A stretch of 64,000 nt of DNA from a virus: positions 92,596-156,595 of the IMG/VR virus record IMGVR_UViG_3300035210_000132. One strand, written 5' to 3'. The notes beneath the pieces are model-generated. The model did not search any database. It saw only the letters and a list, made by a program, of their open reading frames with translations, and was not told where the DNA came from. Within the stretch, counting starts at the first letter, position 1. Each line of letters begins with the position of its first letter. Both the position numbers and the translations under genes were made by a program. Positions 44,560-63,100 of this stretch are shown piece after piece.

Positions 44560-44592
44560 GTGAGGCCCCACCAGGGGCCTTCGTTTAGCCCT
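44560..44592 (+). terminator. Rho-independent terminator
   Basis: 'gaggccccaccaggggcctt' hairpin + 'cgtttagcc'. Confidence 0.55.
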
Positions 44593-44613
44593 CAAAATAG
44601 AGGTTTCCAGAGA

Positions 44614-44623
44614 GATAAGAATA
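44614..44623 (+). promoter_or_regulatory. Conserved promoter-like box GATAAGAATA
   Basis: First of at least 17 copies of (G/T)ATAAG(A/C)(A/G)TA found 30-60 nt upstream of start codons in the right half of the window. Confidence 0.5.
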
Positions 44624-44664
44624 GTGAGGCTAACAACCCATTTAATCTCTCGGAGGACTTCTCT

Positions 44665-45453
44665 ATGCCGAAGAACGATGTCTCCAAAGATCTGCGCTAC
44701 CAGAAGGCCAAGTGCCTTTTGGCGTCCGCCCTGTTCCTCCTAAAGGAAGCGCTGGGGGAATTTGACGAGTATGGGGCACTGGAGCCCCTGGTGAAGGCGG
44801 GTGAGCACCTTCGTAATGCCCAGCTGCGCGAGAAGAAGGAAGGAGATCGAGAAATTATGCAGGTCCTCTCTGAGGACGAAGAGGGTGCGCCCCTTGAGCC
44901 CCTCGCCAGGACCATGAATCTCGTTGCGCCAAAGGTCAGGCGCAAAGCCCTCTCGCCGGCACGGCAGGCGGCCCTTGAGGAAAGGGAGCACCTCGAGGCC
45001 TTATTCAAGGCCAACCCAAACCGCCAGTTCAAGGCCGAAGAGCTGCTCAGGAAGCTCGGGAGGGAGAATCTTGTCACCCTCAAGCAGCAGCTGGGATATC
45101 TCTTTTACGCCGGGATCCTTGAGAAGAGCGGGAAGTGCTACTTCCTGAAGAAGCCCAAGGAAGTGGTGGCCCCCAGCCCCTTGGCCAAGAAGCCGCGCAG
45201 AACCTTTTCCCGGAAACGGAAATTCTCCAAGGTGGATGGGGTGACCAGCCAGCTGGAGGAAGCTATCCTCCGCTGCGCTACGAAGGAGGTAGGGACAAAC
45301 CAGGTCAGGGACAAACTAAAGTCCGACTTCTACCTGGTCAGGGATGCGATTAACGGCCTCTTGAAAAAGGGCCTACTGAAAAAGGTCGACGTCGAGGTCA
45401 TAGATGCCAGGGGCCACCACCGATCCTTCTCGAAGTACATGAAGGTCGGCTAG
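44665..45453 (+). CDS. hypothetical protein
   Basis: RBS 'ggagg'. The ORF-track 5' extension is unlikely. Confidence 0.45.
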   Translation: MPKNDVSKDLRYQKAKCLLASALFLLKEALGEFDEYGALEPLVKAGEHLRNAQLREKKEGDREIMQVLSEDEEGAPLEPLARTMNLVAPKVRRKALSPARQAALEEREHLEALFKANPNRQFKAEELLRKLGRENLVTLKQQLGYLFYAGILEKSGKCYFLKKPKEVVAPSPLAKKPRRTFSRKRKFSKVDGVTSQLEEAILRCATKEVGTNQVRDKLKSDFYLVRDAINGLLKKGLLKKVDVEVIDARGHHRSFSKYMKVG

Positions 45454-45455
45454 CT

Positions 45456-46361
45456 GTGGGCTGCCCTCCTGACACCGACGAGAAGAGGTTGGCTCGCTTC
45501 TACCTGTACAGGAAAGTGCGTCACCTCTGGGAGGTGGGGGATCCCCTGACTGGATGTGCTGTGGTCTTGGCCGGAGACGAAGCGTCGGAGATCGGGTGCC
45601 TACGGTACTACCTAAAAAGGGAGCCCGAGACGACCTACTTTGTTGATGTAGACAAGGCGGGTCTTGACCTAGCCACGAGTCTGTGGAAGGGCGTGCGCAC
45701 TTTCCATGGCTCGATCTCCGACGCGATTCCCCAGATCGAAGACTCCTTCGCGTTCGTGAATCTGGACTTCTGCGGGTTCATGCGGGAAGAGATCATTCAG
45801 AGCCTTGCGGGCCTTGCTGGGAAGATACCCGTCTACGGGGTTGTCTCCTACACATTCCTCCGGAGTCGCGAAGGGGCTTATACCCCAGGATGGGAGGTGG
45901 CCCAGGATCTGGCCACAGACATCATGGAGAAAGACCCTCGCTTCAAGAAGTTCGAGAAAAACTCACCAGAGTGGCTGGACGCTGTCCGCTTTCTTGGGTA
46001 TACCGAGATCCTGAGAAGGCAGTTGGGCAAGACCTTCGAGCCTGTGTTCCGGCTCAGGTACACAGGGGGTCGTAGGTCCAACATGGGCATGGTCGCCCTA
46101 CAGAACGTCCCGCCCTTTGCCAAGACCCCGGCTTGGAGAAAGGAGGTCAGCACCGCCAGGTCGTTCGAGGAGAAGTCGGGGGTAATTCTGGGGGACGACC
46201 TAGCCCTCAAGATCAGAGACCTGGCCCTCACCCTGACGGATGTGTTCCCCACCAAAGAGGTGGCGCAGATCCTCCACATACCTCGGGGCACGATGGCCGC
46301 CTATCAGGCCAACAAGACCCGGGGTACCTACCGAAAGGTGGAAGAGCCCGAGGAGCCCTAA
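45456..46361 (+). CDS. hypothetical protein
   Basis: 301-aa ORF. 'FVDVDKAGLD'/'FVNLDFCGF' motifs have no confident assignment. Confidence 0.45.
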   Translation: MGCPPDTDEKRLARFYLYRKVRHLWEVGDPLTGCAVVLAGDEASEIGCLRYYLKREPETTYFVDVDKAGLDLATSLWKGVRTFHGSISDAIPQIEDSFAFVNLDFCGFMREEIIQSLAGLAGKIPVYGVVSYTFLRSREGAYTPGWEVAQDLATDIMEKDPRFKKFEKNSPEWLDAVRFLGYTEILRRQLGKTFEPVFRLRYTGGRRSNMGMVALQNVPPFAKTPAWRKEVSTARSFEEKSGVILGDDLALKIRDLALTLTDVFPTKEVAQILHIPRGTMAAYQANKTRGTYRKVEEPEEP

Positions 46362-46362
46362 G

Positions 46363-47298
46363 ATGGCCATGGCCCAGAGAAAGATCACGCAGGTCTCCGA
46401 GATCCTGCATGTTCTCCGGCTTAGAGCGATGCTGTCGATATTCGACGTGGCATTCTCTACCGGAGTGGATATTCACACCGTGAGGAAGTGGGAGAAGGGA
46501 GAGGCGACCCCTACTGAGCTTTCGCTGAAGCGGCTCTACGAGCTCTTCCCGGAGCTCAAGCACGCAACGGATTGCCTACCTAGGATCTTGATCGATCAGA
46601 TCAAGTCCAGGGCCCTGGCCGTAGGCAATCGGGGCCAAGAGCTCTGGGTACCTCCGTCTGCGCTTCCAGGGGAGGATCCTCCTGAGTTCGTCTTGAGCTT
46701 CCACCAGGTCCTAGCCAGTATCATGGCAGACGAGAGCCTGGAAATCGAAGACGTGCGTTCTATGTTTGACCTCCCGAAAGGCCTGGTCGAGAGGTGGTGC
46801 ACGGGCGAGGTTCTTCCGACTAGGGAGCACTACCAGCAACTCGTGGACGTATGGCCACAGCTGCTACAAGAGCCCAAGCCAGGAGAGCCAGAGTCTTGGG
46901 TGCGCGTAATCAAGCCCTTCTTGCAGGCCGTACCGATGCCTGCTCCAACTCTCCCCACACCCCCAGTGCTTCCAAAGCAGGATCTCACGGCTACCGTAGT
47001 GGTGCCGGTGGTAGCCCCGACCTCTCCGCTGCCTCCTGCTTTACCACCACTAACGCCCCCGCCCATTCCCAAGATCGAGGCCTTCGTTCCTCCCGACCGG
47101 CAGAAGAAGAAAGTCGACCATGCAGCTGTAGAGTACGGGCAGGCCATGGTCGCCCTGGAGCACGCCAGGAAGTACCGGGAAGAGCTTGTGGCTCAGCTGG
47201 TACAGCTAGATGCAGAGCTTAAGGACCTAGAAAACCAGGCCCAGGAGGCGGAAAAGGCCTTCTGGGTGTCTGTCAGAAAAGCGGCAGACGAGATGTGA
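46363..47298 (+). CDS. Tandem helix-turn-helix (XRE/Cro-like) domain protein with Pro-rich linker and C-terminal coiled coil
   Basis: 'LRLRAMLSIFDVAFSTGVDIHTVRKWEKGEATPT' and a second 'IEDVRSMFDLPKGLVERWCTGEVLPT'. RBS 'gaggag'. Confidence 0.5.
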   Translation: MAMAQRKITQVSEILHVLRLRAMLSIFDVAFSTGVDIHTVRKWEKGEATPTELSLKRLYELFPELKHATDCLPRILIDQIKSRALAVGNRGQELWVPPSALPGEDPPEFVLSFHQVLASIMADESLEIEDVRSMFDLPKGLVERWCTGEVLPTREHYQQLVDVWPQLLQEPKPGEPESWVRVIKPFLQAVPMPAPTLPTPPVLPKQDLTATVVVPVVAPTSPLPPALPPLTPPPIPKIEAFVPPDRQKKKVDHAAVEYGQAMVALEHARKYREELVAQLVQLDAELKDLENQAQEAEKAFWVSVRKAADEM

Positions 47299-47303
47299 TA
47301 GAA

Positions 47304-47346
47304 GGAGGGCCAGATGTCTGTAAGAGACCCTGGTCCCTCCTTTTAC
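47304..47346 (+). terminator. Rho-independent terminator
   Basis: 'ggagggccagatgtctgtaagagaccctggtccctcc' + 'ttttacc'. Confidence 0.6.
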
Positions 47347-47444
47347 CTCCTAGATAGCAAAAATAGCAGATTTCCTGAGATAAGCCTTATGAAGAAAGGC
47401 CTAGTTTCTAGGTACTCTTCTAAACCAGTAACCAGGAGTCCACC

Positions 47445-47861
47445 ATGTCGCTCGTGAAGACCATTACCAAGGTTATCGCCACCGAAATCAAGCTCAACCT
47501 CCTCGCCCTCAAGGCCGGCTATCGCGCCGGCTTCCAGTTCGGGGCGGGCAACCTCACCGGCCAGAAGGCCTTCGAGATGTACACCCGCCAGATGTACAGC
47601 GAGGGCCGGGAGGACATGAAGTTCATGCTCTCCCTGGCGTCGAAGCCTCTCAAGGCCCTTGCGGCCTTCTCGAAGGGGGTCAAGGAGAGCATCAAGGCCG
47701 TCGGCAAGATCGAGGCGGCCTTGGAAACCAAGGAGGAGACGGAGAAGCTGATGAACCTCATCTTCTCGGACCACAAGGTCACCATCTCCAAGGAAGACCT
47801 GAGCCGGATGTCCCAGGGCTGGGCGGACCAGGGCCGGGTCAAGATCGACTGGCAGGCCTAG
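47445..47861 (+). CDS. hypothetical protein
   Basis: Variant promoter 'gataagcctt' at 47379. RBS 'caggag'. Confidence 0.45.
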   Translation: MSLVKTITKVIATEIKLNLLALKAGYRAGFQFGAGNLTGQKAFEMYTRQMYSEGREDMKFMLSLASKPLKALAAFSKGVKESIKAVGKIEAALETKEETEKLMNLIFSDHKVTISKEDLSRMSQGWADQGRVKIDWQA

Positions 47862-47879
47862 TCTTCCCTCTCCTAATGC

Positions 47880-47915
47880 CCCCGGATGCAAGAACCCGGG
47901 GGCGCGTTTCTTAGC
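47880..47915 (+). terminator. Rho-independent terminator
   Basis: 'ccccggatgcaagaacccggggg' + 'cgcgtttctt'. Confidence 0.65.
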
Positions 47916-47946
47916 TATCAAAGTGCAAAGCAGCCCCTCTTGCTGG

Positions 47947-47956
47947 GATAAGAAAG
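47947..47956 (+). promoter_or_regulatory. GATAAGAAAG promoter-like box
   Basis: 17 nt upstream of the ATG at 47973. Confidence 0.45.
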
Positions 47957-47972: not shown

Positions 47973-48242
47973 ATGACAGTCTCAGAAGCTATAAAGATAA
48001 TAGAGATTGGAAACACCCTAGAGTTACTCAGGGTGGATACGGAGCTCTGTGCAGACATGCACAGACTCGACCTCATCGCCGAGATTATCGGTGTTGTGAC
48101 GGGGGACATGACGGGGGCCATCCTGGACCCGGGTACCGACCCTCATTTCCGGGAGCACCTGGAGGAGCTCTTCCAGGTCGCCATCAGCTTGTCGATGATG
48201 GCACGGAGCCGGGCTGAAATAGCCCGGTGCCTGAAGAACTAG
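47973..48242 (+). CDS. hypothetical protein
   Basis: ORF. Confidence 0.45.
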   Translation: MTVSEAIKIIEIGNTLELLRVDTELCADMHRLDLIAEIIGVVTGDMTGAILDPGTDPHFREHLEELFQVAISLSMMARSRAEIARCLKN

Positions 48243-48428
48243 TCCCTACTAGAACGGGTCCTGGGGCGCCAAAGCCCTAGGACCCCTATGTTAGCCCCAA
48301 ACTGCAAAAGTCAGAGATTCTCGGGCATAAGCGTCATGAAAGAGAGACATCCCGTCTCTCTGGAGTAGGCAGTCAAACGACTGCTGAAAACCCAAGGCGC
48401 TCAGACGAGCGCAGAATGGATAACGACC

Positions 48429-48803
48429 ATGACCAAGCTGTTCCTCTCGGCCAGGATTCGCGACCTCCTCAACGGCCTCAACGAGCTGGGATGCTCCGGC
48501 ATCCCCATCTCGGTCAAGCTCCAGGACGAGGGCGAGATGCGGGCCTTCACGGTCCGCTTTCCGGGCATCACCGTGAGGGGTGCTCTCCGGGTCTGGCAGA
48601 GCCACTTCGGGGAGCACGGAAATATCCGTGGCATCGTGGTGGCCCGGAAGAGCGTCCCGTCCTACGAGACCTCCTCCGCGTATGCCATGTCGGCCAGGGA
48701 CGTCGCGTATTGCGACGCTGTGGCCTCGTGGCGGAGGAACGAGACTCCGGGGATGTCCTGGTCGGAATTCACCCGGGACTCTGTTCCCAGCTACGTCGAG
48801 TAG
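48429..48803 (+). CDS. hypothetical protein
   Basis: ORF with a 'gcataagcgt' box at 48325. Confidence 0.45.
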   Translation: MTKLFLSARIRDLLNGLNELGCSGIPISVKLQDEGEMRAFTVRFPGITVRGALRVWQSHFGEHGNIRGIVVARKSVPSYETSSAYAMSARDVAYCDAVASWRRNETPGMSWSEFTRDSVPSYVE

Positions 48804-48807: not shown

Positions 48808-48850
48808 TCCTGACATGAAAGCCTCTGGTGAGTTCCCCAGAGGCTTTCCT
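48808..48850 (+). terminator. Rho-independent terminator
   Basis: 'aagcctctggtgagttccccagaggctt' + 'tcctttagc'. Confidence 0.65.
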
Positions 48851-48885
48851 TTAGCTCTCAGGCGCAAATCCAGGACCTTCTCGGA

Positions 48886-48895
48886 GATAAGCCCA
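48886..48895 (+). promoter_or_regulatory. GATAAGCCCA promoter-like box
   Basis: Upstream of the ATG at 48943 (RBS 'aggag'). Confidence 0.4.
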
Positions 48896-48942: not shown

Positions 48943-49506
48943 ATGTCTATCACCATGACCGCTATCGTTTCCAAGCTCCCCCCCGTCGGCATCTCGGCGA
49001 TCTTCTCCTTCAGCCCGGCCCCGACGCCGGAGCTCCTGAAGGTGATCGAGTCCTCGGTCAAGAGGTCCTCCCCGAAGGGGACGTTCGTCCCCACCCAGAC
49101 GGGGTTCGAGGCGTCGGATCCCCAGATCCCGTTCTCGGAGGTGTCCGGGACGGACTGGAGCACGTGCCCGTTCCCGATCGATGTCGTGGTCGAGGAAGAC
49201 GCCATCCTGGTGACGGCCTTCCTGCCGATGACCACGGACGAGTTCGCCCGGCACATCGCCGGCAGGCCGGTCCTGGCCCAGCCCGAGGGCCGGTATTTCG
49301 TGTGGCACGTTTCCACGACCGTCTCGGGGAGCGTGTCGTCCTCCGGGATCATCGCCGGGCCGATGAGCCGAGAGGACGCCTTCGAGTTCGTGCAGGACAA
49401 GGAGGGTGAGCTGCTCTCCGAGGACGAGGGCATCTCCGAGGACATCTGCACCCGCTACGAGGTCCGGGTTGATGACGGATACCCGGACATGGCGGTGGTG
49501 CGCTAA
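48943..49506 (+). CDS. hypothetical acidic protein
   Basis: ORF. Alternate-frame ORFs were rejected. Confidence 0.45.
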   Translation: MSITMTAIVSKLPPVGISAIFSFSPAPTPELLKVIESSVKRSSPKGTFVPTQTGFEASDPQIPFSEVSGTDWSTCPFPIDVVVEEDAILVTAFLPMTTDEFARHIAGRPVLAQPEGRYFVWHVSTTVSGSVSSSGIIAGPMSREDAFEFVQDKEGELLSEDEGISEDICTRYEVRVDDGYPDMAVVR

Positions 49507-50015
49507 TGAAGCGCCAGGCTGAGCCCTCGCAGTGGCGAGGGAAGAAGATCGCCGAGGTCAAGAGCGAGGACCGGTGCGGTGATCTTTGGGTCCTCTTCGA
49601 GGACGGAACGTTTGCCCTCGTCCCACGTCCCACCAAGATCGTGAAAGTCCCGCTCACCTGCGAGGACATCGAGGACGAAGAGCACGTGAAGCGCGAGGCC
49701 AAGCACGAGATCCTCGTGCAGGTGGGCGTCGCGGAGATCGAGGACTTCCTGGTGGTCTGGCGGGCCCACCGCAAAGCAGAGGCCGACCGCCTCGAGCTGG
49801 AGGAGAGGGCTGAATTGGCCCGCCTCCAGGCCAAGTACGGTAAGGCCAAGGTCGAGGAGGACGAGTACCATCCTCTCCTCGAGCTCCGTGTCTGCGCGTG
49901 CGGGTGCAAGAAGGTGGGCTTCAGCACGCACATGGACGCGTGGTACTGCCCTATGTGCTTCTCGGAGTCCCCCCGGGACTTCGCCAAGGTGCGTCTCGAG
50001 AACCAGCAGGACTAG
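49506..50015 (+). CDS. hypothetical protein with C-terminal zinc ribbon
   Basis: 'CACGCKKVGFSTHMDAWYCPMCF'. Confidence 0.45.
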   Translation: MKRQAEPSQWRGKKIAEVKSEDRCGDLWVLFEDGTFALVPRPTKIVKVPLTCEDIEDEEHVKREAKHEILVQVGVAEIEDFLVVWRAHRKAEADRLELEERAELARLQAKYGKAKVEEDEYHPLLELRVCACGCKKVGFSTHMDAWYCPMCFSESPRDFAKVRLENQQD

Positions 50016-50027: not shown

Positions 50028-50062
50028 GCCCAGGGGACTTCGCACCTCCCCTGGGCGCCGTT
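50028..50062 (+). terminator. Rho-independent terminator
   Basis: 'cccaggggacttcgcacctcccctggg' + 'cgccgtttctt'. Confidence 0.65.
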
Positions 50063-50299
50063 TCTTAGATCTCTATCTTGAGCCGTACGAACCGCAGCAC
50101 TTCTTTGCGGATCCAGATAGCCCCGAAGTGAGAAGAGCAGTAGTGGGCTTTGTTTCCGGACTTCAGAGTAGCCAGAAAGGCAGCTCTCTTGGCGCACCGG
50201 TCCCCATGGCCACAGATAGCCTCACAACGAGGCAAGGTAGGGCTAGAAAGCTCCATCTGTTCTAAGGCTAGCATAAAGTGCAAAACCAGAGGAGTTTCT

Positions 50300-50309
50300 G
50301 ACATAAGTC
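50300..50309 (+). promoter_or_regulatory. GACATAAGTC promoter-like box
   Basis: Upstream of the ATG at 50357 (RBS 'aggag'). Confidence 0.4.
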
Positions 50310-50356: not shown

Positions 50357-50773
50357 ATGCACACTAGGATCAACGAAGAGATGGACGCCTTGACGCGTAA
50401 GGCGTCAAAGTACACGTCGAGGGACTTAACGTGGAGGATCCGGGACGGTATCTTGCGTCTAGGAGATGGGTCCCGGAATGGGGACCTGTACCTGGTCGAG
50501 CACCCGGCCGGGGTGCTTCACGAGGTCTACATGAATACCCGGAGCTTCGGCTTCGGGATCCACGAGCACCACTGGGTGCTCAAGGCCCTCCAGTTGTACA
50601 GGAGGGGGGCTGAGTTCATCGTAACAAATCTTGACGGCAGCTGCGCTCTCGTCACGATCCGCCAGGTAGCAAGTGGCGTGATCACAGTCCAGTACCCTGA
50701 CGGGGTGCTAGTTGAGGCAGTCCCAGACTACTTCAGTTCTGGGATCTACTCCCAGAGCCTCCAGAACAACTAA
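50357..50773 (+). CDS. hypothetical protein
   Basis: ORF. Confidence 0.45.
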   Translation: MHTRINEEMDALTRKASKYTSRDLTWRIRDGILRLGDGSRNGDLYLVEHPAGVLHEVYMNTRSFGFGIHEHHWVLKALQLYRRGAEFIVTNLDGSCALVTIRQVASGVITVQYPDGVLVEAVPDYFSSGIYSQSLQNN

Positions 50774-50851
50774 GCAAGAATCCCCTCCCCCAGCAACACC
50801 GCCGTTTTTTAGGCCCCAGCTGCGCTCTAAAATACCCCTTCCCCTTAAGGG

Positions 50852-50861
50852 TATAAGAATA
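50852..50861 (+). promoter_or_regulatory. TATAAGAATA promoter-like box
   Basis: 'gggtataagaatagtggaggtagctATG'. Confidence 0.5.
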
Positions 50862-50873: not shown

Positions 50874-51104
50874 ATGAAGAAGATCTTGGTAGTGTTATGG
50901 CTAGTCCTTGAAGTAGAGGGACTGGCTTTGGGCCTCCCTTGGTGGGGAGTAGTCCTAGGCAACCTGGTTATCGGGTCTCCTATCCTAGTAGCCCTGATCA
51001 GGAAGCGCAGGGCGGATAGAAAGCGGGCCGAGGAGATCTGGGACCGTCCCGTGGACCCAGATACCATGTACTTCGTCGATGACGAAGGTAACCGGATCCC
51101 CTGA
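50874..51104 (+). CDS. small membrane protein
   Basis: In-frame ATG after RBS 'ggagg'. TM 'ILVVLWLVLEVEGLALGLPWWGVVLGNLVIGSPILVALI'. Confidence 0.5.
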   Translation: MKKILVVLWLVLEVEGLALGLPWWGVVLGNLVIGSPILVALIRKRRADRKRAEEIWDRPVDPDTMYFVDDEGNRIP

Positions 51105-51125
51105 AGGTACCAACTGGAGGTCTTT

Positions 51126-51590
51126 ATGCCTAGCAAGAGCAACGAAAAGCAAGTCGGGTTACCGGAGCTGCCTTCCCAGTCCTTGGAGCAGATCCTCGGT
51201 TCCGAGGGGTACCTGAAGGGGTGGCTCACTGCCATCCGGAGCAGGGCGATCGCCATCAAGGAGGCCATCGAGACCAGGAAGGATAAGAAGGAGTACTTCG
51301 AGTACCTGGAGACCACCTTGTTCAAAGTGATCGATGAGACCCTGAAGCGCCTCCCGAACAAGCCCAAGATCCCTGAAGAGGAGACCCTGGAATACAAGCT
51401 CCAGAACAACATGTCCCTGTTCCGGGTCAAGTTCGGGGACGGGGAGGAGGAGCCGGGGTCTTGCCATGTAGTGGCAGTTTCCATGGAGGAAGCCACCAAG
51501 CGGGTCCAGCAGGAGGTGATGCAGAAGGGGGAGCGGGTGTTGAACGTCTGGGAGCTGGATAGTTATGCGGTGGTGGCCCTGCCCAAGTAG
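51126..51590 (+). CDS. hypothetical protein
   Basis: RBS 'ggagg'. Confidence 0.45.
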   Translation: MPSKSNEKQVGLPELPSQSLEQILGSEGYLKGWLTAIRSRAIAIKEAIETRKDKKEYFEYLETTLFKVIDETLKRLPNKPKIPEEETLEYKLQNNMSLFRVKFGDGEEEPGSCHVVAVSMEEATKRVQQEVMQKGERVLNVWELDSYAVVALPK

Positions 51591-51599
51591 GGCTACAGG

Positions 51600-52600
51600 G
51601 CACCAAAGGGGGAGCTAACCCTCTTCCCTTAGCTACCTAGCAAAACTCCCCTCTTCCAGGAGATAAGTCTTATGTACCCAGACCAACGCTAGCTACTTGG
51701 GTACGAAAGGCTAGGTGGCCATGAATCTGACCGTGAGCCTAAACAATGGAAGGAGGTGGGAAGTGACCTGGCGACATTAAACCCAGCACACTGGGTGCGC
51801 AGTATAGAAGGGGGCCTGAGTACGCACTACGCCCGCTTCTTAGCCCTCAGCCAGAGCCCCCAAAATCCCCCAAGTAAATTTTCAGGCCCCTGTAGACCCC
51901 CCAAGCGTTTATTCGAGGTACCCACCCCCCTACCCCCTTAAACCCTCCCCAAAAAACAAGGCTCTCACGGGGAGCGATGGGTTCCTGTCCTAGGGGAGCC
52001 TTTAACTCCCCCCAAAAAACACGGGTACCACAGTCCCCCCGGATCGAGCCAAGTAGTACCTGTTCACTAAGCCTAGCAATTAGCGATGCCTTGCTTGCGA
52101 GCGTAGTGCGCTCCCTTGGGTGGGCTACAGGAGGCGCAAAGGGGTGCGGAATATCCGATGTTGGTATTTACCCCCTGGGGGAAACGACACCTTGGAGTTA
52201 TTCGGTGCACTTGATGGGGCTACAGAGGCATGAAGGACGCACTAGTATAGCATGAAGTGAGGAAATCTCGCTTTCTAGCTAGGGGAAGTGTAAGATCGAC
52301 ATAGCACTTTCGAAATACCATTATATTTATCGCAGAAGTAAACTGTAAAACCCGACTCTTTCCGAGTTTTTGAACGCTACATGATCAGCTATCCCTATCT
52401 ACCTAGCTACCTAACTAGTAACTCGTACTCCTTCCTCTTACCTACTCCCCTTACTTCGCTTTACTAAGGATAGACCGAACATCGCCTACCTCCCTTGGGC
52501 GCACTTTTGGGAGAGCTGGCTGTGCTCTCGTGCTTGCGGCTGGGTGTAGGTGAGCTGCGCAATGATACTTGTTGCTTCGGGTATAAGAGAGTTGAGGAGG
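51600..52600. other. ~1-kb non-coding region: GATAAG box (51660), a poly-C tract with repeated 'cccc(c)aaaaaaca(a/c)gg' (51830-52060), then AT-rich and CT-rich blocks (52290-52480). Candidate origin or packaging region.
   Basis: No credible ORF in any frame. Strong compositional skew compared with flanking DNA. Confidence 0.4.
52583..52592 (+). promoter_or_regulatory. GTATAAGAGA promoter-like box
   Basis: Upstream of the ATG at 52606 (RBS 'gaggagg'). Confidence 0.45.
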
Positions 52601-52605
52601 TCACT

Positions 52606-53363: not shown

Positions 53364-53448
53364 ACCGTCTCTCCCGCCTTCGCCCTGACCTCTGGGCCCC
53401 TCTCCCTTAGTACGTAAGCAGCCCTGCGCAAGTAGTAGCCTTGCTACG

Positions 53449-53458
53449 GGTATAAGAT
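53449..53458 (+). promoter_or_regulatory. GTATAAGATA promoter-like box
   Basis: Upstream of the ATG at 53478 (RBS 'aaggagg'). Confidence 0.45.
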
Positions 53459-54704: not shown

Positions 54705-54980
54705 ATGAAGACCCTTTACTCGTTCCACTGGGACTGTCGCCGCCAGGGCCTAGAAGATCTAGATGCAGAAGAACCCCTGAACATACCGAGTGCAGATGTA
54801 CTGCGTCTCCATACGCTACGAGATACCCTTGCGCAGGTAGGAGTTGGCAAGGAGTCCTGGCCGCTCTTGGAGGCCCTGCAGTACATCCATGACGAAGAGG
54901 CCGAGTCGGGCTGGGAGACTTGCTGGAAAGCCGTCGCTAACAGGTTCCAGCTCACCATGCCTGCTCTGCCAAAGCCCTAG
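54705..54980 (+). CDS. hypothetical protein
   Basis: RBS 'ggggagaaagg'. Confidence 0.4.
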   Translation: MKTLYSFHWDCRRQGLEDLDAEEPLNIPSADVLRLHTLRDTLAQVGVGKESWPLLEALQYIHDEEAESGWETCWKAVANRFQLTMPALPKP

Positions 54981-54988
54981 ATAAACAG

Positions 54989-54999
54989 GTATAAGAATA
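54989..54999 (+). promoter_or_regulatory. GTATAAGAATA promoter-like box
   Basis: Upstream of 55059. Confidence 0.45.
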
Positions 55000-55058: not shown

Positions 55059-55625
55059 GTGCCGGCGGCACTCAAGGGACAAAGGGCATTCGTAGAAGTG
55101 CTGCAGACTCACGGCGTAGTGGGGACCCGACTACTCGCAGAAACGATGCTATCGGGCCAGGCAGAAACACAGAAAGGCTGTGGCGGGACAACGCTTCCCC
55201 CGAGCGAGGTTCGAATCCTCGATCTGCCTCTAGAAGTATCTGCTACCGGTACTGGAAGTCTCCTCACCCCGTTAGAGGGGATTGGCTTTTCAAGGAGACC
55301 GCATCCCATGAAGACTCTCGTGAACCTCACCCCGCACACCATCAATCTCTTCGGATCCAATGACAGCAACCAGGCTATCCCCTCCACGGGAGTAGCTCGG
55401 TGCGTTGCCATCCCGACAGTCGTCGGGGAGGTGAACGGAGTCCCCGTGCGCCGCACGCAGTTCGGTGCAGTGACCGGGCTGCCCGAGCCCTCGGAAGGGG
55501 TCATCTTCATCGTCTCTATGTTGGTGGCTTCGGCCGCCAAGAGGGACGATGTCGTGTTCCCCGACGACGTCGTGCGCGACCCCGATGGCAAGATCATCGG
55601 GTGCCGCGCCCTCGGCTGTCCGTAG
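55059..55625 (+). CDS. hypothetical protein (GTG start)
   Basis: ORF. Confidence 0.4.
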   Translation: MPAALKGQRAFVEVLQTHGVVGTRLLAETMLSGQAETQKGCGGTTLPPSEVRILDLPLEVSATGTGSLLTPLEGIGFSRRPHPMKTLVNLTPHTINLFGSNDSNQAIPSTGVARCVAIPTVVGEVNGVPVRRTQFGAVTGLPEPSEGVIFIVSMLVASAAKRDDVVFPDDVVRDPDGKIIGCRALGCP

Positions 55626-55697
55626 AGATCCCGCCTACTGCCCGAAGTTCTGGGCCCTTCTCTTAGCCCTGAAACAGCAAAATAGGGATCCTAGCGG

Positions 55698-55709
55698 ATA
55701 TAAGAATAA
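55698..55709 (+). promoter_or_regulatory. GATATAAGAATA promoter-like box
   Basis: Upstream of 55760. Confidence 0.45.
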
Positions 55710-55759: not shown

Positions 55760-56161
55760 ATGGAGACTTCTCTGGATGGCAAGAACCCCGTTCGCCCCAA
55801 CTCGGCGCAGTTTCCGGCCCTGGGCTTCACCCAGGAAGACGCGATCCAGCTCAAGCTGGACGTCAAGAACATGGTGGTAGAGGTTCTCTCGGCCGACCGG
55901 GAGGCCCTCTTCGAGCAGATGAAGAGGGTCTGCTCGGGGGCTATCCTCTCGCGCGAGCAGGAGCTCGCCAAGGAGGAGCGCGAGAGGGTCCGCCGAAAGG
56001 CGGAGCAGGACGAGCTCCTCCACCAGGAGGAGATGCGCCGCAAGGCGCTGAAGAACTCCGAGCTGGCCATTGGCCTCTCGGCCAGCGCGTTCTTCAGCGT
56101 GCTGGCCATCGCCTGGAAGCTCCGGCAGGGGGGCAAGCTCCTCGGCCTCCCGGTCCCGTAG
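55760..56161 (+). CDS. hypothetical coiled-coil protein with C-terminal TM
   Basis: RBS 'aggag'. Preferred over the overlapping Gly/Arg/Pro-rich ORF 55549-56235. Confidence 0.45.
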   Translation: METSLDGKNPVRPNSAQFPALGFTQEDAIQLKLDVKNMVVEVLSADREALFEQMKRVCSGAILSREQELAKEERERVRRKAEQDELLHQEEMRRKALKNSELAIGLSASAFFSVLAIAWKLRQGGKLLGLPVP

Positions 56162-56184
56162 TAGGTTCCACGGTTCGGCCAGCG

Positions 56185-56227
56185 AAGCCCGCTCCCCGAG
56201 AGGGGTTGGGCTTCGTGTTTTTTAGCT
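56185..56227 (+). terminator. Rho-independent terminator
   Basis: 'cgaagcccgctccccgagaggggttgggcttcg' + 'tgtttttt'. Confidence 0.7.
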
Positions 56228-56252
56228 CTGAGTAGGCTTCATATAAAACGGG

Positions 56253-56332
56253 CATAAGAAGTATGAATCCAGGGCACGTTGCCCCATGAGTGTAGCTATG
56301 CAAAAAGCTGCAAAAGCCTGTCATAAGAAGTA
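56253..56332 (+). promoter_or_regulatory. Two tandem CATAAGAAGTATG promoter-like boxes 68 bp apart
   Basis: 'gggcataagaagtatgaa' and 'tgtcataagaagtatgtaagg'. Confidence 0.45.
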
Positions 56333-56371
56333 TGTAAGGACATTGGTGTCCTTTTTTAAGGGAGATGTCCC

Positions 56372-56518
56372 ATGGTAGAGGTGTTGACAACCGCAGTGGT
56401 ATCGACTTCGTCGCTTTCTATCACCACGGTTTCCGGTACCGCCATCGTGATAGCGGGTGGGTTTGTCGTATGCGCCTGCATTGGGGTGGCACTGCTTCTC
56501 TGGGTGTGCTTCTGGTAA
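56372..56518 (+). CDS. small membrane protein (48 aa). Not in the ORF track.
   Basis: RBS 'aagggag'. 'MVEVLTTAVVSTSSLSITTVSGTAIVIAGGFVVCACIGVALLLWVCFW'. Confidence 0.4.
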   Translation: MVEVLTTAVVSTSSLSITTVSGTAIVIAGGFVVCACIGVALLLWVCFW

Positions 56519-56642
56519 CTCCTCTATAACAATTAAGCCATGCAATCGGTGGCTGAGTCTTCTACACATGAAGGCGGGACAGGTTGCCATAAACGTGTGA
56601 CCCCCGTTCTTAGCTCACAGAAGCAAGAGCGGCTCGAATAAG

Positions 56643-56655
56643 GAGATAAGAGTAA
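56643..56655 (+). promoter_or_regulatory. GAGATAAGAGTAA promoter-like box
   Basis: Upstream of 56731. Confidence 0.4.
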
Positions 56656-56730: not shown

Positions 56731-57204
56731 ATGACTATCTCCATCAAGAGCTTGCTGATCGCAGTCGTCTGCCTCATCGCGGTCCCCGGAACCGCCTGGG
56801 TCCTCGAGAGGTACCATATCGGGAACACCCCGGAGCCGGAAGCTTTGCGTGCACCCCTCGCTCCCCAACATGTCGACTCCCCTGCCTCTGCCTCTGTCTC
56901 TGCTGAGTTCCTAGACCAAAGGGTGATGTACGAAGACTTGGGGATGATCGCGTGCCTCAAGACCCTGAAGTGTAGGGGCATGGACTCAAGCACGGACTCC
57001 GTGCAGAAGTGCGCAGCGGAGTTCGTGAAGAAGGTTTGCGCCGCTACCAATGGGTGCAAAGAGGCCGTCGAGTCCAATCACACCGTGCAGGACATGGTGG
57101 CCTGCGTCGACGTGATAAAAGACATGAGGTGCCCTAGGGGCAAGAGCACCAAAGTCACGGACGTCCTCGACGTCCTGATCGACAAGTGCCCGGCTAGTAG
57201 GTAG
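56731..57204 (+). CDS. secreted/periplasmic Cys-rich protein
   Basis: Signal peptide 'MTISIKSLLIAVVCLIAVPGTAWV'. 10 Cys in the mature part. Confidence 0.5.
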   Translation: MTISIKSLLIAVVCLIAVPGTAWVLERYHIGNTPEPEALRAPLAPQHVDSPASASVSAEFLDQRVMYEDLGMIACLKTLKCRGMDSSTDSVQKCAAEFVKKVCAATNGCKEAVESNHTVQDMVACVDVIKDMRCPRGKSTKVTDVLDVLIDKCPASR

Positions 57205-57213
57205 AGTTAAGGC

Positions 57214-57465
57214 GTGTGTAAAACCGCCAAGGTGTTTGGGCTCTTGGCAGCTGCCGTCTTGGGCTCGTTCTTTCAGCTCAAGCCTTGGCAGCTGCTCGGA
57301 ATGCTGCTCGTCCTGCTTGGAGATCTCGGTGATCTCCTAGTGTTCTGTGACGAGCAGGAGCGGAAGTACCGAGTGAGCGTCATCATCCGAGAGATGACAG
57401 AAATACAGGCAGACGACCCCACGCCCAAGTGGGTTCTGTCCGCTTTCCGTCGGATGCTTCCGTGA
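57214..57465 (+). CDS. small membrane protein
   Basis: Two TM helices. Confidence 0.4.
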   Translation: MCKTAKVFGLLAAAVLGSFFQLKPWQLLGMLLVLLGDLGDLLVFCDEQERKYRVSVIIREMTEIQADDPTPKWVLSAFRRMLP

Positions 57466-57478
57466 AAGGTACCAACTT

Positions 57479-57494
57479 GCCCTCTCCGGAGGGC
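57479..57494. terminator. Bidirectional hairpin terminator
   Basis: 'gccctctccggagggc' between convergent genes. Confidence 0.5.
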
Positions 57495-57499
57495 ATATC

Positions 57500-57736
57500 T
57501 TAGCTCATAGCAATTAGCTTACGCCTGCGCCTACGGGGACGCATGTACCTCTCTAGAATGGCTTGGGGCAGCCCCTCTAGGTGGGTGCCACAGGAGAGGC
57601 AGTAACGCATGGATACCTCTTTGTCTTTGCCTCCCTCGGTCACCACCATGTACCAGCCTTCCTGGGAGCCAAAGATGTAATTTCCTAGGCCTTCCAGGAA
57701 CTCATCACAAGGAGACCGGTCGCAGATCTTACTCAT
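57500..57736 (-). CDS. hypothetical Cys-containing protein
   Basis: ORF on the minus strand. C-terminal Arg-rich. Confidence 0.4.
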   Translation of the reverse strand: MSKICDRSPCDEFLEGLGNYIFGSQEGWYMVVTEGGKDKEVSMRYCLSCGTHLEGLPQAILERYMRPRRRRRKLIAMS

Positions 57737-57791
57737 CTTACCTAGAGACTACTGGGTAGGCCCCTGGAACGCAAGAGGGCCCCCAAAGGGG

Positions 57792-57802
57792 GTATAAGAA
57801 GG
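57792..57802 (+). promoter_or_regulatory. GTATAAGAAGG promoter-like box
   Basis: Upstream of 57834 (RBS 'ggagg'). Confidence 0.45.
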
Positions 57803-57833: not shown

Positions 57834-58313
57834 ATGCTACCTGTTGTTCTGGCCGCCCTAGTTACGGCGGTCACAGCTCTGGGATTTACGAACGCCCACT
57901 GGCTGGGCTTCTCAGCCCTGGGCTGTAAGTTGGTGGTTGACCACGTCTTGAAGTTCCCCTCCAAGGAGGGGCTCCTCTCTCCGAACCTTGACGAGTTTGT
58001 CAAGGGGACGTACGTCGGCGAGGGGACGAGCACCATTCTCGGAGAGGCGCTCACGCTCATTGCGAGCAACTCGTTTGCTCCCCCCGAGATGAAAAAGTTC
58101 ATGGGGAAGACATTCATGTTCTCCATGAGTGAGGGTAAGTTCGCGAGCTCCTGCGCTAGAGTAGGTTGTTATACGATAGAGCACGCCTTCAAGAGGGTAA
58201 AAGAAGGCGCGTCTCTGGAGCAGGCAGGAGAGTATCTCAGCGAGACCCTGCCCAAGCAGGTGGATTCGTTGGTCCTGCTTCTCGAGTCCATCCCGCCCTC
58301 GCGGGTCTTCTGA
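57834..58313 (+). CDS. hypothetical protein
   Basis: ORF. Confidence 0.45.
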   Translation: MLPVVLAALVTAVTALGFTNAHWLGFSALGCKLVVDHVLKFPSKEGLLSPNLDEFVKGTYVGEGTSTILGEALTLIASNSFAPPEMKKFMGKTFMFSMSEGKFASSCARVGCYTIEHAFKRVKEGASLEQAGEYLSETLPKQVDSLVLLLESIPPSRVF

Positions 58314-58321: not shown

Positions 58322-58352
58322 AGCCTGGGGAGGGACAAACCTTCCCCAGGCA
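58322..58352 (+). terminator. Rho-independent terminator
   Basis: 'cctggggagggacaaaccttccccagg' + 'cacttgtactt'. Confidence 0.6.
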
Positions 58353-58392
58353 CTTGTACTTAGCTATCAGTGCAAGAAGAGGCCAGCTTACG

Positions 58393-58403
58393 AGATAAGG
58401 GCA
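58393..58403 (+). promoter_or_regulatory. GAGATAAGGGC promoter-like box
   Basis: Upstream of 58442. Confidence 0.4.
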
Positions 58404-58441: not shown

Positions 58442-59407
58442 ATGGGATCACAGACCGATGCATGGATGTCCTGGCTGGAGAACATTGAAGTCGGGCAGCA
58501 AAGGGCTCTTTACGAAGTACTGACTTCTCGTTTCTCGCAACAAGATGACGACTCCATCAGGGTGATCAGAACGCCTATCGAGGATCTCATGATCGAGGAT
58601 CCTCCTGTCTACGTCGACATCTTCAACCTTCACGAAATCTACAAGCGCTTAGCTTTCAACACCAACATCATCCTCAAGGGCCCCAAGGGAGATGGCAAGA
58701 CCCTGTCGATCTTTGCCTATGCTGCAAGCATCAGTTGTCCCCTGGTCATCCAGGAGTGCAGTGAGGAGACCAAGAAGTACGACCTCATGGGCTCGCAGAT
58801 GTTCATCGGTGACGAGACGGTCTACATGCTCGGCTCGGTACCGACGGCCATCGATATAGCCAACGAGGTTGGACAGTGCATTCTGCTCTTCGAAGAGCTC
58901 AACGCTCTCATGCCTCAGACCCAAAAGCAGCTCAACGCCATCTCCGATTTCCGGAAGATGGTCTCGATGCCCCACATCGGGAAGAGTTACAAGCTTCGGG
59001 AAGATGCCAAGGTCTGGGTGGTCGGTACCCAGAACCCTTCGACCTATGGCGGGTCCTATGACATGAACGAGGACTTGAAATCTCGTTTCGAGGAGATCGA
59101 GCTCACCTACCCAGAGCACGGGCAAGAGAAGGGCATTGTCAAAGCTGTCTGTGGCACGCTGGCCGCCGATGACCTCATAGACAAGGTCTTACGCTTCGCC
59201 AAGGAGACCCGGCAACAAGCTACGGGTTATGCACTCTCTACCCGAGACGTCAATCGCTTCATCCACACGGCGGCCAAGATCGGACTCGACAACGCGCTGC
59301 AGCTGGTCATTGGCAAGTTCGAGGATGCAGACAAGGACACGGTGATGAAGCGTATGGCCTCAGTGTTCGGTCCCAAGGCAGTCAAGAAGTTCTGGGGGGC
59401 TCTATGA
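58442..59407 (+). CDS. MoxR-family AAA+ ATPase (CobS-like)
   Basis: Walker A 'GPKGDGKT', Walker B 'ILLFEELNA', MoxR sensor 'VVGTQNP'. RBS 'gaggag'. Confidence 0.7.
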   Translation: MGSQTDAWMSWLENIEVGQQRALYEVLTSRFSQQDDDSIRVIRTPIEDLMIEDPPVYVDIFNLHEIYKRLAFNTNIILKGPKGDGKTLSIFAYAASISCPLVIQECSEETKKYDLMGSQMFIGDETVYMLGSVPTAIDIANEVGQCILLFEELNALMPQTQKQLNAISDFRKMVSMPHIGKSYKLREDAKVWVVGTQNPSTYGGSYDMNEDLKSRFEEIELTYPEHGQEKGIVKAVCGTLAADDLIDKVLRFAKETRQQATGYALSTRDVNRFIHTAAKIGLDNALQLVIGKFEDADKDTVMKRMASVFGPKAVKKFWGAL

Positions 59408-62027: not shown

Positions 62028-62034
62028 TCACGAC

Positions 62035-62066
62035 TGCACTCGAGAGATCGGGTGCAGTTCTTTAGC
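62035..62066 (+). terminator. Rho-independent terminator
   Basis: 'ctgcactcgagagatcgggtgcag' + 'ttcttt'. Confidence 0.6.
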
Positions 62067-62099
62067 GCTGAGATGCAGATCAAAGAACAAAAAGATACG

Positions 62100-62111
62100 G
62101 ATATAAGAATA
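62100..62111 (+). promoter_or_regulatory. GATATAAGAATA promoter-like box
   Basis: 'cggatataagaatacatgaaggaggaaattgATG'. Confidence 0.5.
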
Positions 62112-62128
62112 CATGAAGGAGGAAATTG

Positions 62129-63100
62129 ATGATCATGCTTGCTCAGACGATCTCTGTCGAGAAAGCATCAAGTGAACCGTATCTGTTACGGCAGCTGATC
62201 CTGGAAGCGTCTGTGCTAGCTTCCCATATTTACGCGGATCTCGATGGCATAGTGTCGTTGTTGCTGGCCAAACAGATACGCGCCTCAGCTGGAAAGCCAC
62301 CGGCTGAGGTTTTGTTCATCCAGGCCAACACCTCCTTTCTCGAGGAAGGTGTCCTGGCGCTCGATATGGGCGAAGGGAGGGGAGTTCAGAGATTAGGAGA
62401 TGGTTATTCTATAAAAGCATCGGCTCTAGGAGGAAGTGCCACGATGGCGGTCCTCCGCTGCATGGATCCGGAAGACCATCACATCTTCCGTTCCTGGGCC
62501 AAGGCCGTCAGCAACGCTGACGAAGGACGCAACATACACACGCAGACCATGGAGAGACATGGGGATCTCTACGAAGAGGAGAAGAGCCAGATCAAGACTA
62601 CGGTTGACTGGTTCACCCACGGCTCTTTGATGCGGGTGATGGGGGATTATGAGCTCCTGTACTGGTGGGAGCAGAAGTTCCGGGGCATGCTTGTATCGGG
62701 CAGGATCGCCAAGGTAGCCGCAGAGCAGGCACGAATAGCAGAGTTTTTGTATCACAACCTGTTTGCTATTCTTCCTGAGAACGCCTCGAGTGACGCCACG
62801 AAGTTCGTCACCAAAGCTGGGGCAGTAATTGTGACGTTCTCCGCCTCGATGGGAGGGAATCGGTGGAAGCTTGGGCTGACCACCCGGAGCAACTTCATAA
62901 ACTTTGCGACCATCGGCAACCGCATGCTCGAGGAATTCCCCGACATCTTCGTCGACCAGCGGGGGCGCTTGATTGGTTGGACTGCGAAAGGCCCTTTGTG
63001 CTGCACAAGAAAGGAATACGAAGAGCGAAAGGCGGCGTTCCTGTGCGTCGCTAAGGAAGAAGTTCTTGTTTACCTGAAGGCGGAGGGCTTCTTGACATAG
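62129..63100 (+). CDS. hypothetical protein
   Basis: RBS 'gaaggagg'. Confidence 0.5.
   Translation: MIMLAQTISVEKASSEPYLLRQLILEASVLASHIYADLDGIVSLLLAKQIRASAGKPPAEVLFIQANTSFLEEGVLALDMGEGRGVQRLGDGYSIKASALGGSATMAVLRCMDPEDHHIFRSWAKAVSNADEGRNIHTQTMERHGDLYEEEKSQIKTTVDWFTHGSLMRVMGDYELLYWWEQKFRGMLVSGRIAKVAAEQARIAEFLYHNLFAILPENASSDATKFVTKAGAVIVTFSASMGGNRWKLGLTTRSNFINFATIGNRMLEEFPDIFVDQRGRLIGWTAKGPLCCTRKEYEERKAAFLCVAKEEVLVYLKAEGFLT

Follow-up and report, generated by a model that had tools for sequence, protein, structure and literature searches.

A 64,000-nucleotide stretch of DNA from an uncultured phage (positions 92,596 to 156,595 of the IMG/VR record IMGVR_UViG_3300035210_000132, here called the window) carries on its plus strand an accessory region in which a recurrent ATAAG-containing element precedes short groups of genes and hairpin terminators follow them. 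An earlier note on this DNA had described the element as a lone 10-mer box, (G/T)ATAAG(A/C)(A/G)TA; instead, it forms the -10 half of a phage promoter that has two boxes and is specific to one gene class. We propose that terminator, promoter, Shine-Dalgarno (SD) sequence and ATG make up composite cassettes, which would cut the plus-strand accessory region into 18 autonomous units of 1-3 genes. That the two signals, recognized from their sequence, are indeed promoters and terminators is highly probable.

The -10 element and its upstream box

The motif, of which at least 17 copies had been counted in the earlier note, is real once its consensus is relaxed, but in the strict form, KATAAGMRTA, it matches only six times (44614, 50852, 54990, 55699, 56645 and 62102, all on the plus strand; 0.14 expected). 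All 16 of the coordinates listed there have an (N)ATAAG core, at most 1-3 nt off, and the list lacked the copies at 47379, 48326, 48886, 50302 and 51662. With the core G-R-(G/T/C)ATAAG, 18 copies are counted between 43.5 and 62.1 kb and five further ones upstream. In an unbiased k-mer comparison ATAAGA was the most enriched non-coding hexamer, with 20 non-coding and 4 coding occurrences (reverse complement 2/2), while the ratios for GAGATAAG and GGTATAAG were 9:0 and 7:0; equal frequency in coding DNA, the outcome that the earlier note had named as speaking against its own claim, is clearly not what is found. GRKATAAG has 23 matches in the window (5.2 expected, both strands), 22 of them on the plus strand, and 20 of these 22 are intergenic in a window of which only 26% is non-coding. 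A position weight matrix (PWM) spanning -24 to +8 relative to the hexamer retrieved, at a threshold of at least 9 bits, 23 plus-strand sites, every one intergenic, and a single weak match on the minus strand; three of the sites lay outside the training set (48326 and 50302, both CATAAG, and a weak one at 28806). The two largest direct-repeat families returned by a prior-free repeat finder are the promoter itself, and hint at two sub-flavours, GCAAAA...TTCTCGG-A-GATAAG-CC and GGG-TATAAG-AATAATG. The distance from hexamer to ATG is mostly 22-66 nt and longer at a few sites (86, 103 and about 300 nt); SD sequences of the GGAGG type and the start codon sit at the 3' end of the element. The earlier note was thus right that the box is a true promoter-like signal, which lies between genes in one orientation and goes together with terminators.

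Alignment of 20 intergenic window sites on the hexamer revealed a further box, GCAA(A/G)A, which occupies -22 to -17 counted from the first base of the hexamer. In its relaxed form, G(C/A)AA(A/G), this box begins exactly 22 nt 5' of the hexamer, and the spacer between the boxes is unconserved and 14-15 nt long, corresponding to a -35/-10-type spacing of 16-17 nt. In the same alignment the second base before the hexamer (-2) is always G and the next (-1) a purine; the hexamer, (G/T)ATAAG, is followed by a favoured A at +6, by T at +11 and by G/A at +12, and T(+11)/G(+12) recurs in the relatives. Within the hexamer the first base is variable (G, T or C), the three middle bases T-A-A are invariant, and the last base is G in 36 of 36 aligned sites (20/20 in the window and 16/16 in relatives) and likewise in the sites read individually. 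The combined pattern GMAAR-N15-GRKATAAG has nine matches, all on the plus strand, against 0.02 expected, and leave-one-out scoring of the upstream half gives the sites +3.4 bits, as against -4.2 for KATAAG elsewhere and -7.1 for random positions.

The consensus that we propose would run (t)G(C/A)AA(A/G), a 14-15 nt spacer, G-R, (G/T/C)ATAAG, an A-rich discriminator and T/G at the predicted -1/+1. If the hexamer acts as a -10 element, the start should fall at +12, where the usual pyrimidine(-1) and purine(+1) are seen; transcription would thus begin about 12 nt after the first hexamer base, often at the SD sequence itself, and at sites with short leaders (22-27 nt to the ATG) the predicted transcript starts right at the GGAGG.

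A small stem-loop directly follows the predicted +1 of the promoters at 39945, 47379, 48326, 50302 (where it reads caggaagacatcttcctg), 55699, 56322 and 57793, and may serve to stabilise the 5' ends of the predicted transcripts. The 13-nt sequence CATAAGAAGTATG is directly duplicated with its copies 69 nt apart (56253-56334), the second having GCAAAA at the right distance; the duplication looks like slippage or recombination between promoter copies.

Conservation of the predicted promoter in relatives

The AAA_5 ATPase encoded at 58442-59407 has many homologs, with 46-62% identity, on contigs of 100-220 kb, and loci (±10 kb) from five further lineages of this uncultured family of 130-220 kb phages were scanned for sites by pattern and alignment. 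Their common core consists of AAA_5, followed in several lineages by DUF7352, of a product 700-820 amino acids or so in length and usually of one of about 325; the minus-strand sheath block is also common to all relatives, whereas the small upstream genes differ completely. Two pairs of genomes, L003/L004 and L006/L007, are collinear. GRKATAAG is enriched in every locus, and in L003, L005, L006, L008, L009 and L010, with 48-53% GC, each of its matches is on the plus strand (nine against 2.1 expected in L003 and eight against 1.8 in L010), and the relatives' sites lie 12-82 nt before plus-strand starts. When 16 of the relatives' sites were picked by the -10 half, GRKATAAG, alone, the upstream box, often (G/T)AAA, was found at the same distance and scored above the random 95th percentile in 10 of the 16 (Mann-Whitney p = 6e-8).

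The promoter 5' of AAA_5 is orthologous in six lineages, the window and the five others. In its alignment nothing is invariant except AA in the upstream box, G-N-GATAAG, the SD sequence and the start codon ATG, which provides a clean phylogenetic footprint of the predicted promoter. YTTAGCY occurs in the relatives just 3' of plus-strand gene ends. The promoter motif has no match at any locus in the minus-strand structural block, the tail sheath gene included, and the signal is therefore specific to one gene class.

Predicted hairpin terminators with a TTAGC tail

The second signal was described in the earlier note as a hairpin and T tract ending in TTAGC, and this is borne out: a strict search, demanding a perfect stem of at least 6 bp that ends 0-10 nt before TTAGY, returned 12 terminators on the plus strand and 3 on the minus strand, against 2.3 ± 1.4 in shuffles. 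A hairpin with a folding free energy (dG) of -12 kcal/mol or lower precedes 17 of 22 intergenic plus-strand TTAG(C/T) sites, about 16 hairpin terminators carry the conserved tail YTTAGC(Y-N-T-S-A), and TTAGCYNTSA has nine matches, all on the plus strand, where 1.5 are expected. A generic terminator scan of 44-64 kb yielded 32 against 16.6 expected. The terminator hairpins are strong (dG -12 to -28), and each is followed by a mixed run of pyrimidines that contains 2-6 T and closes with TTAGC; a hairpin lies within about 30-45 nt 5' of 12-16 of the 18 promoters in 43.5-62.1 kb.

We considered TTAGC as a fixed-position promoter element (an UP element or activator site) and rejected it, because it lies anywhere between 29 and 44 nt from the hexamer and because it is present at terminators that no promoter follows (17757, 51840, 57500 and 63170); for the same reasons we assign TTAGC to the terminator. 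The standard model of intrinsic termination leaves the YTTAGC tail, including its conserved AGC, without explanation, and the tail may mark a termination or RNA-processing determinant.

A different hairpin, in a gap between two genes of the minus-strand late block (63803-63934, equal to 14059-14190 of L001), is kept in six lineages: its loop, ACCAGCCCC, is invariant, its stem co-varies, with compensatory changes in 11 of 22 pairs, an invariant, anti-SD-like CCTCCC stands about 25 nt 5' of it, and it ends in a canonical tail, CCCCTCTTTT. A regulated terminator or attenuator and a protein-binding RNA are both possible functions.

Predicted transcription units

The gene map is based on the gene calls of the source contig, a Logan contig of run SRR10968280, and on a codon-usage model; a greedy map of open reading frames (ORFs) gave spurious antisense ORFs in this DNA of 56% GC. 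Gene calls, promoter signals and terminator signals together delimit 18 transcription units between 43.5 and 63.2 kb: ten with one gene (one of them in fact ORF-less, about 170 nt long, from the promoter at 51662 to the terminator at 51840), four with two genes and three with three. The single-gene cassettes of the earlier note are only half right because of these four two-gene and three three-gene units: the plus-strand region is split into short units, but only about half of them hold one gene, and the partition is per 1-3 genes, not the gene-by-gene transcriptional insulation that had been suggested.

Similarity to the cassettes of T4-like phages

This arrangement is not unprecedented, since it matches the concept of the promoter-early stem-loop (PeSL) cassettes known from the T4-like phages RB49/phi1, T4/PST and KVP40/nt-1 (Arbiol 2010, PMC2839356; Comeau 2014, PMC4122927). 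Further hallmarks of PeSLs are indels or replacements that the elements bound in closely related genomes, and the formation of mini-circles. PeSLs consist of a stem-loop, an early promoter, an SD and an ATG, lie between ORFans in hyperplastic regions, have a lineage-specific consensus, and also occur as degraded half copies (PMC2839356, PMC4122927). In the window the order of the parts is the same (terminator stem-loop, two-box promoter, SD, ATG), the cassettes are repeated between small ORFans beside conserved core genes and are rare in the structural module, and there is a half copy at 56253. They differ in that all published PeSLs have TTGACA/TATAAT-like promoters whereas the elements here are GMAAR / GR-NATAAG, in the additional conserved YTTAGC tail, and in the short homology between copies, about 20-30 nt. 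Nor is the phage demonstrably T4-like: it has the rIIA/rIIB pair and a sheath homolog, but rIIA and rIIB are at most 37% identical to those of any cultured phage, the sheath homolog has 1234 amino acids, and the T4 late motif TATAAATA is lacking. As the sigma70-like consensus fails and T4-like membership is uncertain, the cassettes are best called PeSL-like rather than PeSLs. While the layout is already known from T4-like phages, the non-canonical -10, the conserved terminator tail and the family-wide conservation in an uncultured lineage are of moderate interest. The result carries the PeSL idea, in which ORFans are framed by portable cassettes of terminator, promoter and SD, to phages other than the cultured T4-like ones.

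Which polymerase or sigma factor may read the promoter

Two short boxes at a fixed spacing of 16-17 nt, a free spacer and a G at the extended -10 position point to a sigma70-family factor on a multisubunit RNA polymerase (RNAP), and this spacing makes a T7-like or other non-sigma RNAP unlikely. The earlier description of the element as non-sigma70-like thus fits its letters but not its geometry. The letters are non-canonical, and canonical TTGACA-N17-TATAAT sites are not enriched in any of three segments (5 against 7.9, 4 against 6.8 and 6 against 6.6 expected). At the -35 position the spacing fits, but the box is GCAA(A/G)A or GAAA, without TT. The -10 element of primary sigma factors is TAnnnT, in which T(-7) is required and the middle positions are free. 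The invariant G in place of T(-7), the invariant T-A-A and the variable first base make a non-primary sigma likelier than the host housekeeping sigma. We incline slightly towards a promoter that is read by a phage-specified or otherwise non-primary sigma factor. The reader would be a phage-encoded sigma or a phage-modified holoenzyme with group-3 (sigma28/sigmaF)-like specificity, and the promoters would form an early-middle class distinct from those of the minus-strand structural genes. A more far-reaching proposal, which we put forward only tentatively, is that the phage family uses signals of its own throughout, a phage-encoded or phage-reprogrammed group-3-like sigma for GMAAR-N15-GR-NATAAG promoters together with a sequence-specific terminator or processing signal (hairpin + YTTAGC-Y-N-T-S-A), in portable, host-independent cassettes.

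The earlier note took the uniform box to imply a phage-specific RNAP or sigma/activator; this was not confirmed. Pfam and PHROGs searches with essentially all window proteins and six proteins of the right flank revealed no homolog of a sigma factor, an RNAP subunit, gp55, MotA or AsiA, in a scan that covers about 72 kb of a genome taken as about 199 kb, the other 125 kb or so lying outside it. (The genome size follows a 199,134-bp JGI contig that carries an identical copy of the AAA_5 protein.) A literature search for a TATAAG promoter class found nothing relevant, and one for the run SRR10968280 found no paper.

Several points weigh against this reading, the predicted promoters and terminators included. 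Besides the failure to find a sigma, an RNAP subunit or a sigma-appropriation protein in the scanned part of the genome, no other promoter class able to express a phage sigma was seen in the 64 kb. The transcription start sites and 3' ends are predictions, and the terminator tails are pyrimidine-rich, not clean U-tracts. The analogous T4-like cassettes use host sigma70, a region of this type (rIIA/rIIB, tRNAs, ORFans) is usually transcribed early by unmodified host RNAP, and an unusual primary-sigma consensus in the host is possible. The likeness to group-3 promoters is also partial. The sigma28/FliA promoter is TAAA-N15-GCCGATAA, and what our element shares with it, and with those of Bacillus subtilis sigmaF/sigmaB, is the 22 nt from the start of the upstream box to GATAA, the GATAA core and a G-rich lead-in, besides the (G/T)AAA upstream box that is frequent in relatives. 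GATAA is present in about half of the sites, the others having TATAAG or CATAAG; the GCC before GATAA is missing, the box is G(C/A)AA and not TAAA, and an extra invariant G follows ATAA. No sigma28-like protein was found in the 72 kb scanned, and phage reliance on a host flagellar sigma would be unusual.

Some of these points lend weight to the alternative that the cassettes are true analogues of PeSLs, with early promoters for the unmodified RNAP and primary sigma of a host whose housekeeping promoters differ from TTGACA/TATAAT. Their architecture is that of PeSLs, whose consensus varies by host lineage (PMC4122927), the ORFan, tRNA and rII setting is typical of early genes, the 16-17 nt spacing and the G at the extended -10 position would suit a primary sigma, this is the only promoter class detectable in 64 kb, and the scan disclosed no phage sigma. 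The fact that about 40 sites, from the window and six lineages, have G at the equivalent of -7, a variable -12 and invariant -10/-9/-8, the reverse of the TAnnnT of characterised primary sigmas, makes us regard this alternative as possible but rather doubtful; moreover, the consensus is constant across relatives of 48-56% GC which may infect different hosts, and minus-strand genes (the ligase, a PG-binding/3D protein and the structural block) never use the motif. A non-canonical RNAP of the phage itself, either single-subunit (T7/N4-like) or multisubunit (phiKZ-like), for which hairpin and TTAGC would be the termination signal, would account for the family-wide retention at terminators of YTTAGC, which bacterial intrinsic termination does not need, and for canonical host promoters not being enriched in 64 kb; TATAAG also resembles ATATAAGTA, the promoter of the T7-like RNAP of yeast mitochondria. 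However, single-subunit RNAP promoters are contiguous, of about 18-23 nt, and phiKZ-type enzymes use short motifs near the transcription start, whereas two short boxes at a fixed distance with an unconserved spacer of 14-15 nt are typical of sigma recognition, and no RNAP-like protein was found in the window, the flank or the ±10 kb loci of the relatives; we consider such an enzyme improbable.

Least probable of all, to the point of being hardly credible, is that the motif is no promoter but a DNA site for a phage regulator or for a recombinase that shuffles cassettes, or an RNA operator in the 5' untranslated region. A role as substrates for recombination has been suggested for elements of the PeSL type (PMC2839356, PMC4122927), the duplication at 56253/56322 has the look of slippage, and the gene content between cassettes is wholly different among relatives. 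However, two boxes at a fixed spacing, a purine at the predicted +1, strict co-orientation with downstream genes, and a position after a terminator and before an SD, at a variable distance from the ATG (12-100 nt), all suit a promoter and not a translational operator. The stretch shared between cassettes, about 20-30 nt with some 70% identity, is ill suited to homologous recombination, and a role in recombination would add to the promoter function, not replace it.

Other phage regulatory systems offer only partial parallels to the proposed non-primary sigma. The MotA-dependent middle promoters of T4-type phages (sigma appropriation by MotA/AsiA) likewise combine a -10 element with a phage-specific upstream box, which takes the place of the -35 hexamer at about -30 to -35, but their box reads TGCTT(t/c)A and their -10 is still TAnnnT, unlike the G(C/A)AA(A/G) box and the G-ending -10 of the window. 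Middle promoters fused to stem-loops, called PmSLs, occur in nt-1 (PMC4122927). As in the sigma cascades of SPO1 (gp28, gp33/34) and T4 (gp55), a phage-wide, class-specific consensus unlike the host's would mark a temporal class, but the consensus sequences are others, the gp55 promoters (TATAAATA) have no upstream box, and no homologs were found in the scanned sequence. A T4 late (gp55) promoter was rejected: TATAAATA has no match in the window or in L001-L010, and our motif, unlike it, comes with an upstream box and is absent from the structural block. A different phage-specific motif has been described in pf16 (PMC5587285), and the discovery of promoter motifs being routine in large-phage genomics, as in that phage, a motif such as ours is less surprising.

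Primary sigmas need T at the position where this -10 element always has G, so that the element would represent a promoter specificity of a new kind and, if a cognate phage sigma exists, half of an orthogonal promoter/sigma pair. Should the phage family use its own signals throughout, any ORF placed between the two would be autonomously expressed, portable and independent of host promoter specificity. For annotation, the 18 units with their predicted +1 and 3' ends give a ready transcription map of the accessory region of a widespread uncultured family, and the same two signals can be used to annotate the transcription units of relatives.

Feature map and gene content

Table 1 Predicted promoters and terminators of the window, in order of position (promoters: upstream box, spacer, hexamer)
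Feature	Position	Strand	Support and context
Promoter TCAAGA-N16-GATAAG	4668..4695	+	PWM 23.3 bits; intergenic; 42 nt before ATG 4732; heads long plus-strand operon including Dam, ThyX, rIIA/rIIB
Terminator, hairpin + TTAGCTATCA	17731..17766	+	End of long rIIA/rIIB operon
Promoter GAAAAA-N16-GATAAG	18842..18869	+	PWM 26.7 bits; strict bipartite match; within tRNA cluster
Promoter GATAAA-N16-GATAAG	26445..26472	+	PWM 20.6 bits; after tRNA-Ala terminator/TTAGC at 26435
Promoter	33360..33387	+	PWM 26.2 bits; 22 nt before ATG 33404
Promoter, weak upstream box	39923..39950	+	PWM 15.6 bits; 44 nt before ATG 39989
Promoter GCAATT-N16-TATAAG	43514..43541	+	PWM 20.7 bits
Terminator, 8-bp GC hairpin + cgt + TTAGC	44562..44589	+	
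Promoter TCAAAA-N16-GATAAG	44592..44619	+	PWM 22.8 bits; 3 genes 44665-47298
Terminator, hairpin + TTTT, without TTAGC	47304..47344	+	Sequence read
Promoter GCAAAA-N16-GATAAG	47357..47384	+	PWM 26.9 bits; strict bipartite match; gene 47445-47861
Terminator, 9-bp hairpin + cgtttc + TTAGC	47877..47915	+	
Promoter GCAAAG-N16-GATAAG	47925..47952	+	PWM 26.7 bits; strict bipartite match; gene 47973-48242
Terminator, 12-bp hairpin + ctatg + TTAGC	48256..48295	+	
Promoter GCAAAA-N16-CATAAG	48304..48331	+	PWM 16.9 bits, outside training set; gene 48429-48803
Terminator, 12-bp hairpin + ct + TTAGC	48817..48855	+	
Promoter GCAAAT-N16-GATAAG	48864..48891	+	PWM 26.6 bits; bipartite pattern search; 2 genes 48943-50015
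Terminator, hairpin + cgccgtttc + TTAGA variant	50029..50069	+	Sequence read
Promoter GCAAAA-N16-CATAAG	50280..50307	+	PWM 19.2 bits, outside training set; gene 50357-50773
Promoter AAATAC-N16-TATAAG	50830..50857	+	PWM 21.1 bits; strict 10-mer; 22 nt before ATG; 2 genes 50874-51590
Terminator, 7-bp hairpin + ccc + TTAGC	51606..51633	+	
Promoter GCAAAA-N16-GATAAG	51640..51667	+	PWM 25.9 bits; strict bipartite match; heads ORF-less unit of about 170 nt
Terminator, imperfect hairpin + TTAGCCCTCA	51807..51849	+	
Promoter GCAATG-N17-TATAAG	52559..52587	+	PWM 19.7 bits; 24 nt before ATG 52606; 2 genes
Weak terminator, TTAGT tail	53380..53411	+	dG -7.7
Promoter GCAAGT-N17-TATAAG	53428..53456	+	PWM 19.7 bits; 27 nt before ATG; 3 genes 53478-54980
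Promoter GCCAAA-N16-TATAAG	54968..54995	+	PWM 23.0 bits; strict 10-mer; next called gene 55308-55625
Terminator, hairpin + ccttctc + TTAGCCCTGA	55640..55672	+	
Promoter GCAAAA-N16-TATAAG	55677..55704	+	PWM 30.2 bits, best match; strict 10-mer and bipartite; gene 55760-56161
Terminator, long hairpin + gtgtttt + TTAGCTCTGA	56184..56231	+	dG -26.1
-10-only half copy (CATAAGAAGTATG), no upstream box	56253..56265	+	13-nt duplicate of next promoter's -10 region
Promoter GCAAAA-N16-CATAAG	56300..56327	+	Sequence read; small gene 56372-56518
Terminator, imperfect hairpin + TTAGC	56575..56614	+	dG -13.8
Promoter GCAAGA-N16-GATAAG	56623..56650	+	PWM 22.6 bits; strict 10-mer and bipartite; 2 genes 56731-57465
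Terminator, 7-bp hairpin + tatc + TTAGC	57478..57504	+	
Promoter GCAAGA-N16-TATAAG	57771..57798	+	PWM 22.4 bits; strict bipartite match; gene 57834-58313
Terminator, 12-bp hairpin + acttgtac + TTAGCTATCA	58323..58369	+	
Promoter GCAAGA-N16-GATAAG	58372..58399	+	PWM 16.7 bits; footprint alignment; operon of AAA_5, DUF7352 and a 760-aa protein
Terminator, 11-bp hairpin + tct + TTAGC	62033..62066	+	
Promoter TCAAAG-N16-TATAAG	62080..62107	+	PWM 23.7 bits; strict 10-mer; 27 nt before ATG 62129
Terminator, hairpin + tttt + TAGC	63140..63174	+	Ends plus-strand block, meets convergent minus-strand structural genes

The ORF-less unit was considered as a structured small RNA and rejected, its fold being unexceptional (z = -0.9), and an Rfam scan, whose matches were tRNAs and a single group I intron, placed no known RNA family at the cassettes. 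The unit lies in a gap of about 1 kb (51590-52605) that has no called gene and contains the promoter at 51662 and terminators at 51629 and 51840, together with C-rich CCCCCAAAA repeats (51850-52030) and an AT-rich island holding the window's only near-perfect sigma70-like site, TTTACA-18-TATAAT, on the minus strand (52349-52320). The gap is possibly an origin or a regulatory region.

Megablast against 50,697 deposited phages found no near DNA match to the window, cultured relatives are essentially lacking for the AAA_5 protein, and a search of IMG/VR for relatives yielded none. Nearly all cassette proteins are ORFans, without PHROG or Pfam matches, and to the right of the plus-strand block is the minus-strand block with the tail-sheath homolog; ORFan cassettes, rIIA/rIIB and tail sheath together mark the region as the hyperplastic, accessory part of the genome, about 200 kb in size, of an uncultured myovirus. 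The hyperplastic region of the relatives contains Response_reg, RyR and Metallophos genes. The window has 32 tRNA genes in about 21 kb (18611-39889). ARAGORN reports one tRNA with a 4-base anticodon (attg, 20264-20336) which Rfam does not report, and Rfam an extra tRNA at 30102-30171. Among the tRNAs lies a diguanylate-cyclase-like gene (24537-25415, minus strand) in whose sequence the GGDEF motif can be read; for inferring the host it gave only generic matches, of at most 45% identity, spread over many phyla. A receiver-domain protein (cREC_REC, PF20274, 6e-10) is encoded at 38537-38950 on the plus strand.

The gene at 3182-4621 (minus strand), which has no promoter motif, encodes an ATP-dependent DNA ligase fused to a LigD-type 3'-phosphoesterase domain. 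A group I intron (RF00028, 60 bits) at 9361-9634, within 8388-10294 of the plus strand, appears from the sequence to split a ThyX-like thymidylate synthase gene (8388-8828 + 9725-10294) and overlaps the end of an unidentified ORF (8886-9542) that possibly encodes a homing endonuclease. An 873-aa protein (30740-33361, plus strand) has the shoulder domain of the Major Vault Protein (PF11978, 7e-28) and a weak match to the Vault_3 repeat, which is unusual for a phage; it has no PHROG match. The rIIB homolog (16291-17463, plus strand) carries, between its conserved N-terminal part and its C-terminus, an acidic, D/E-rich low-complexity insertion of about 90 amino acids.

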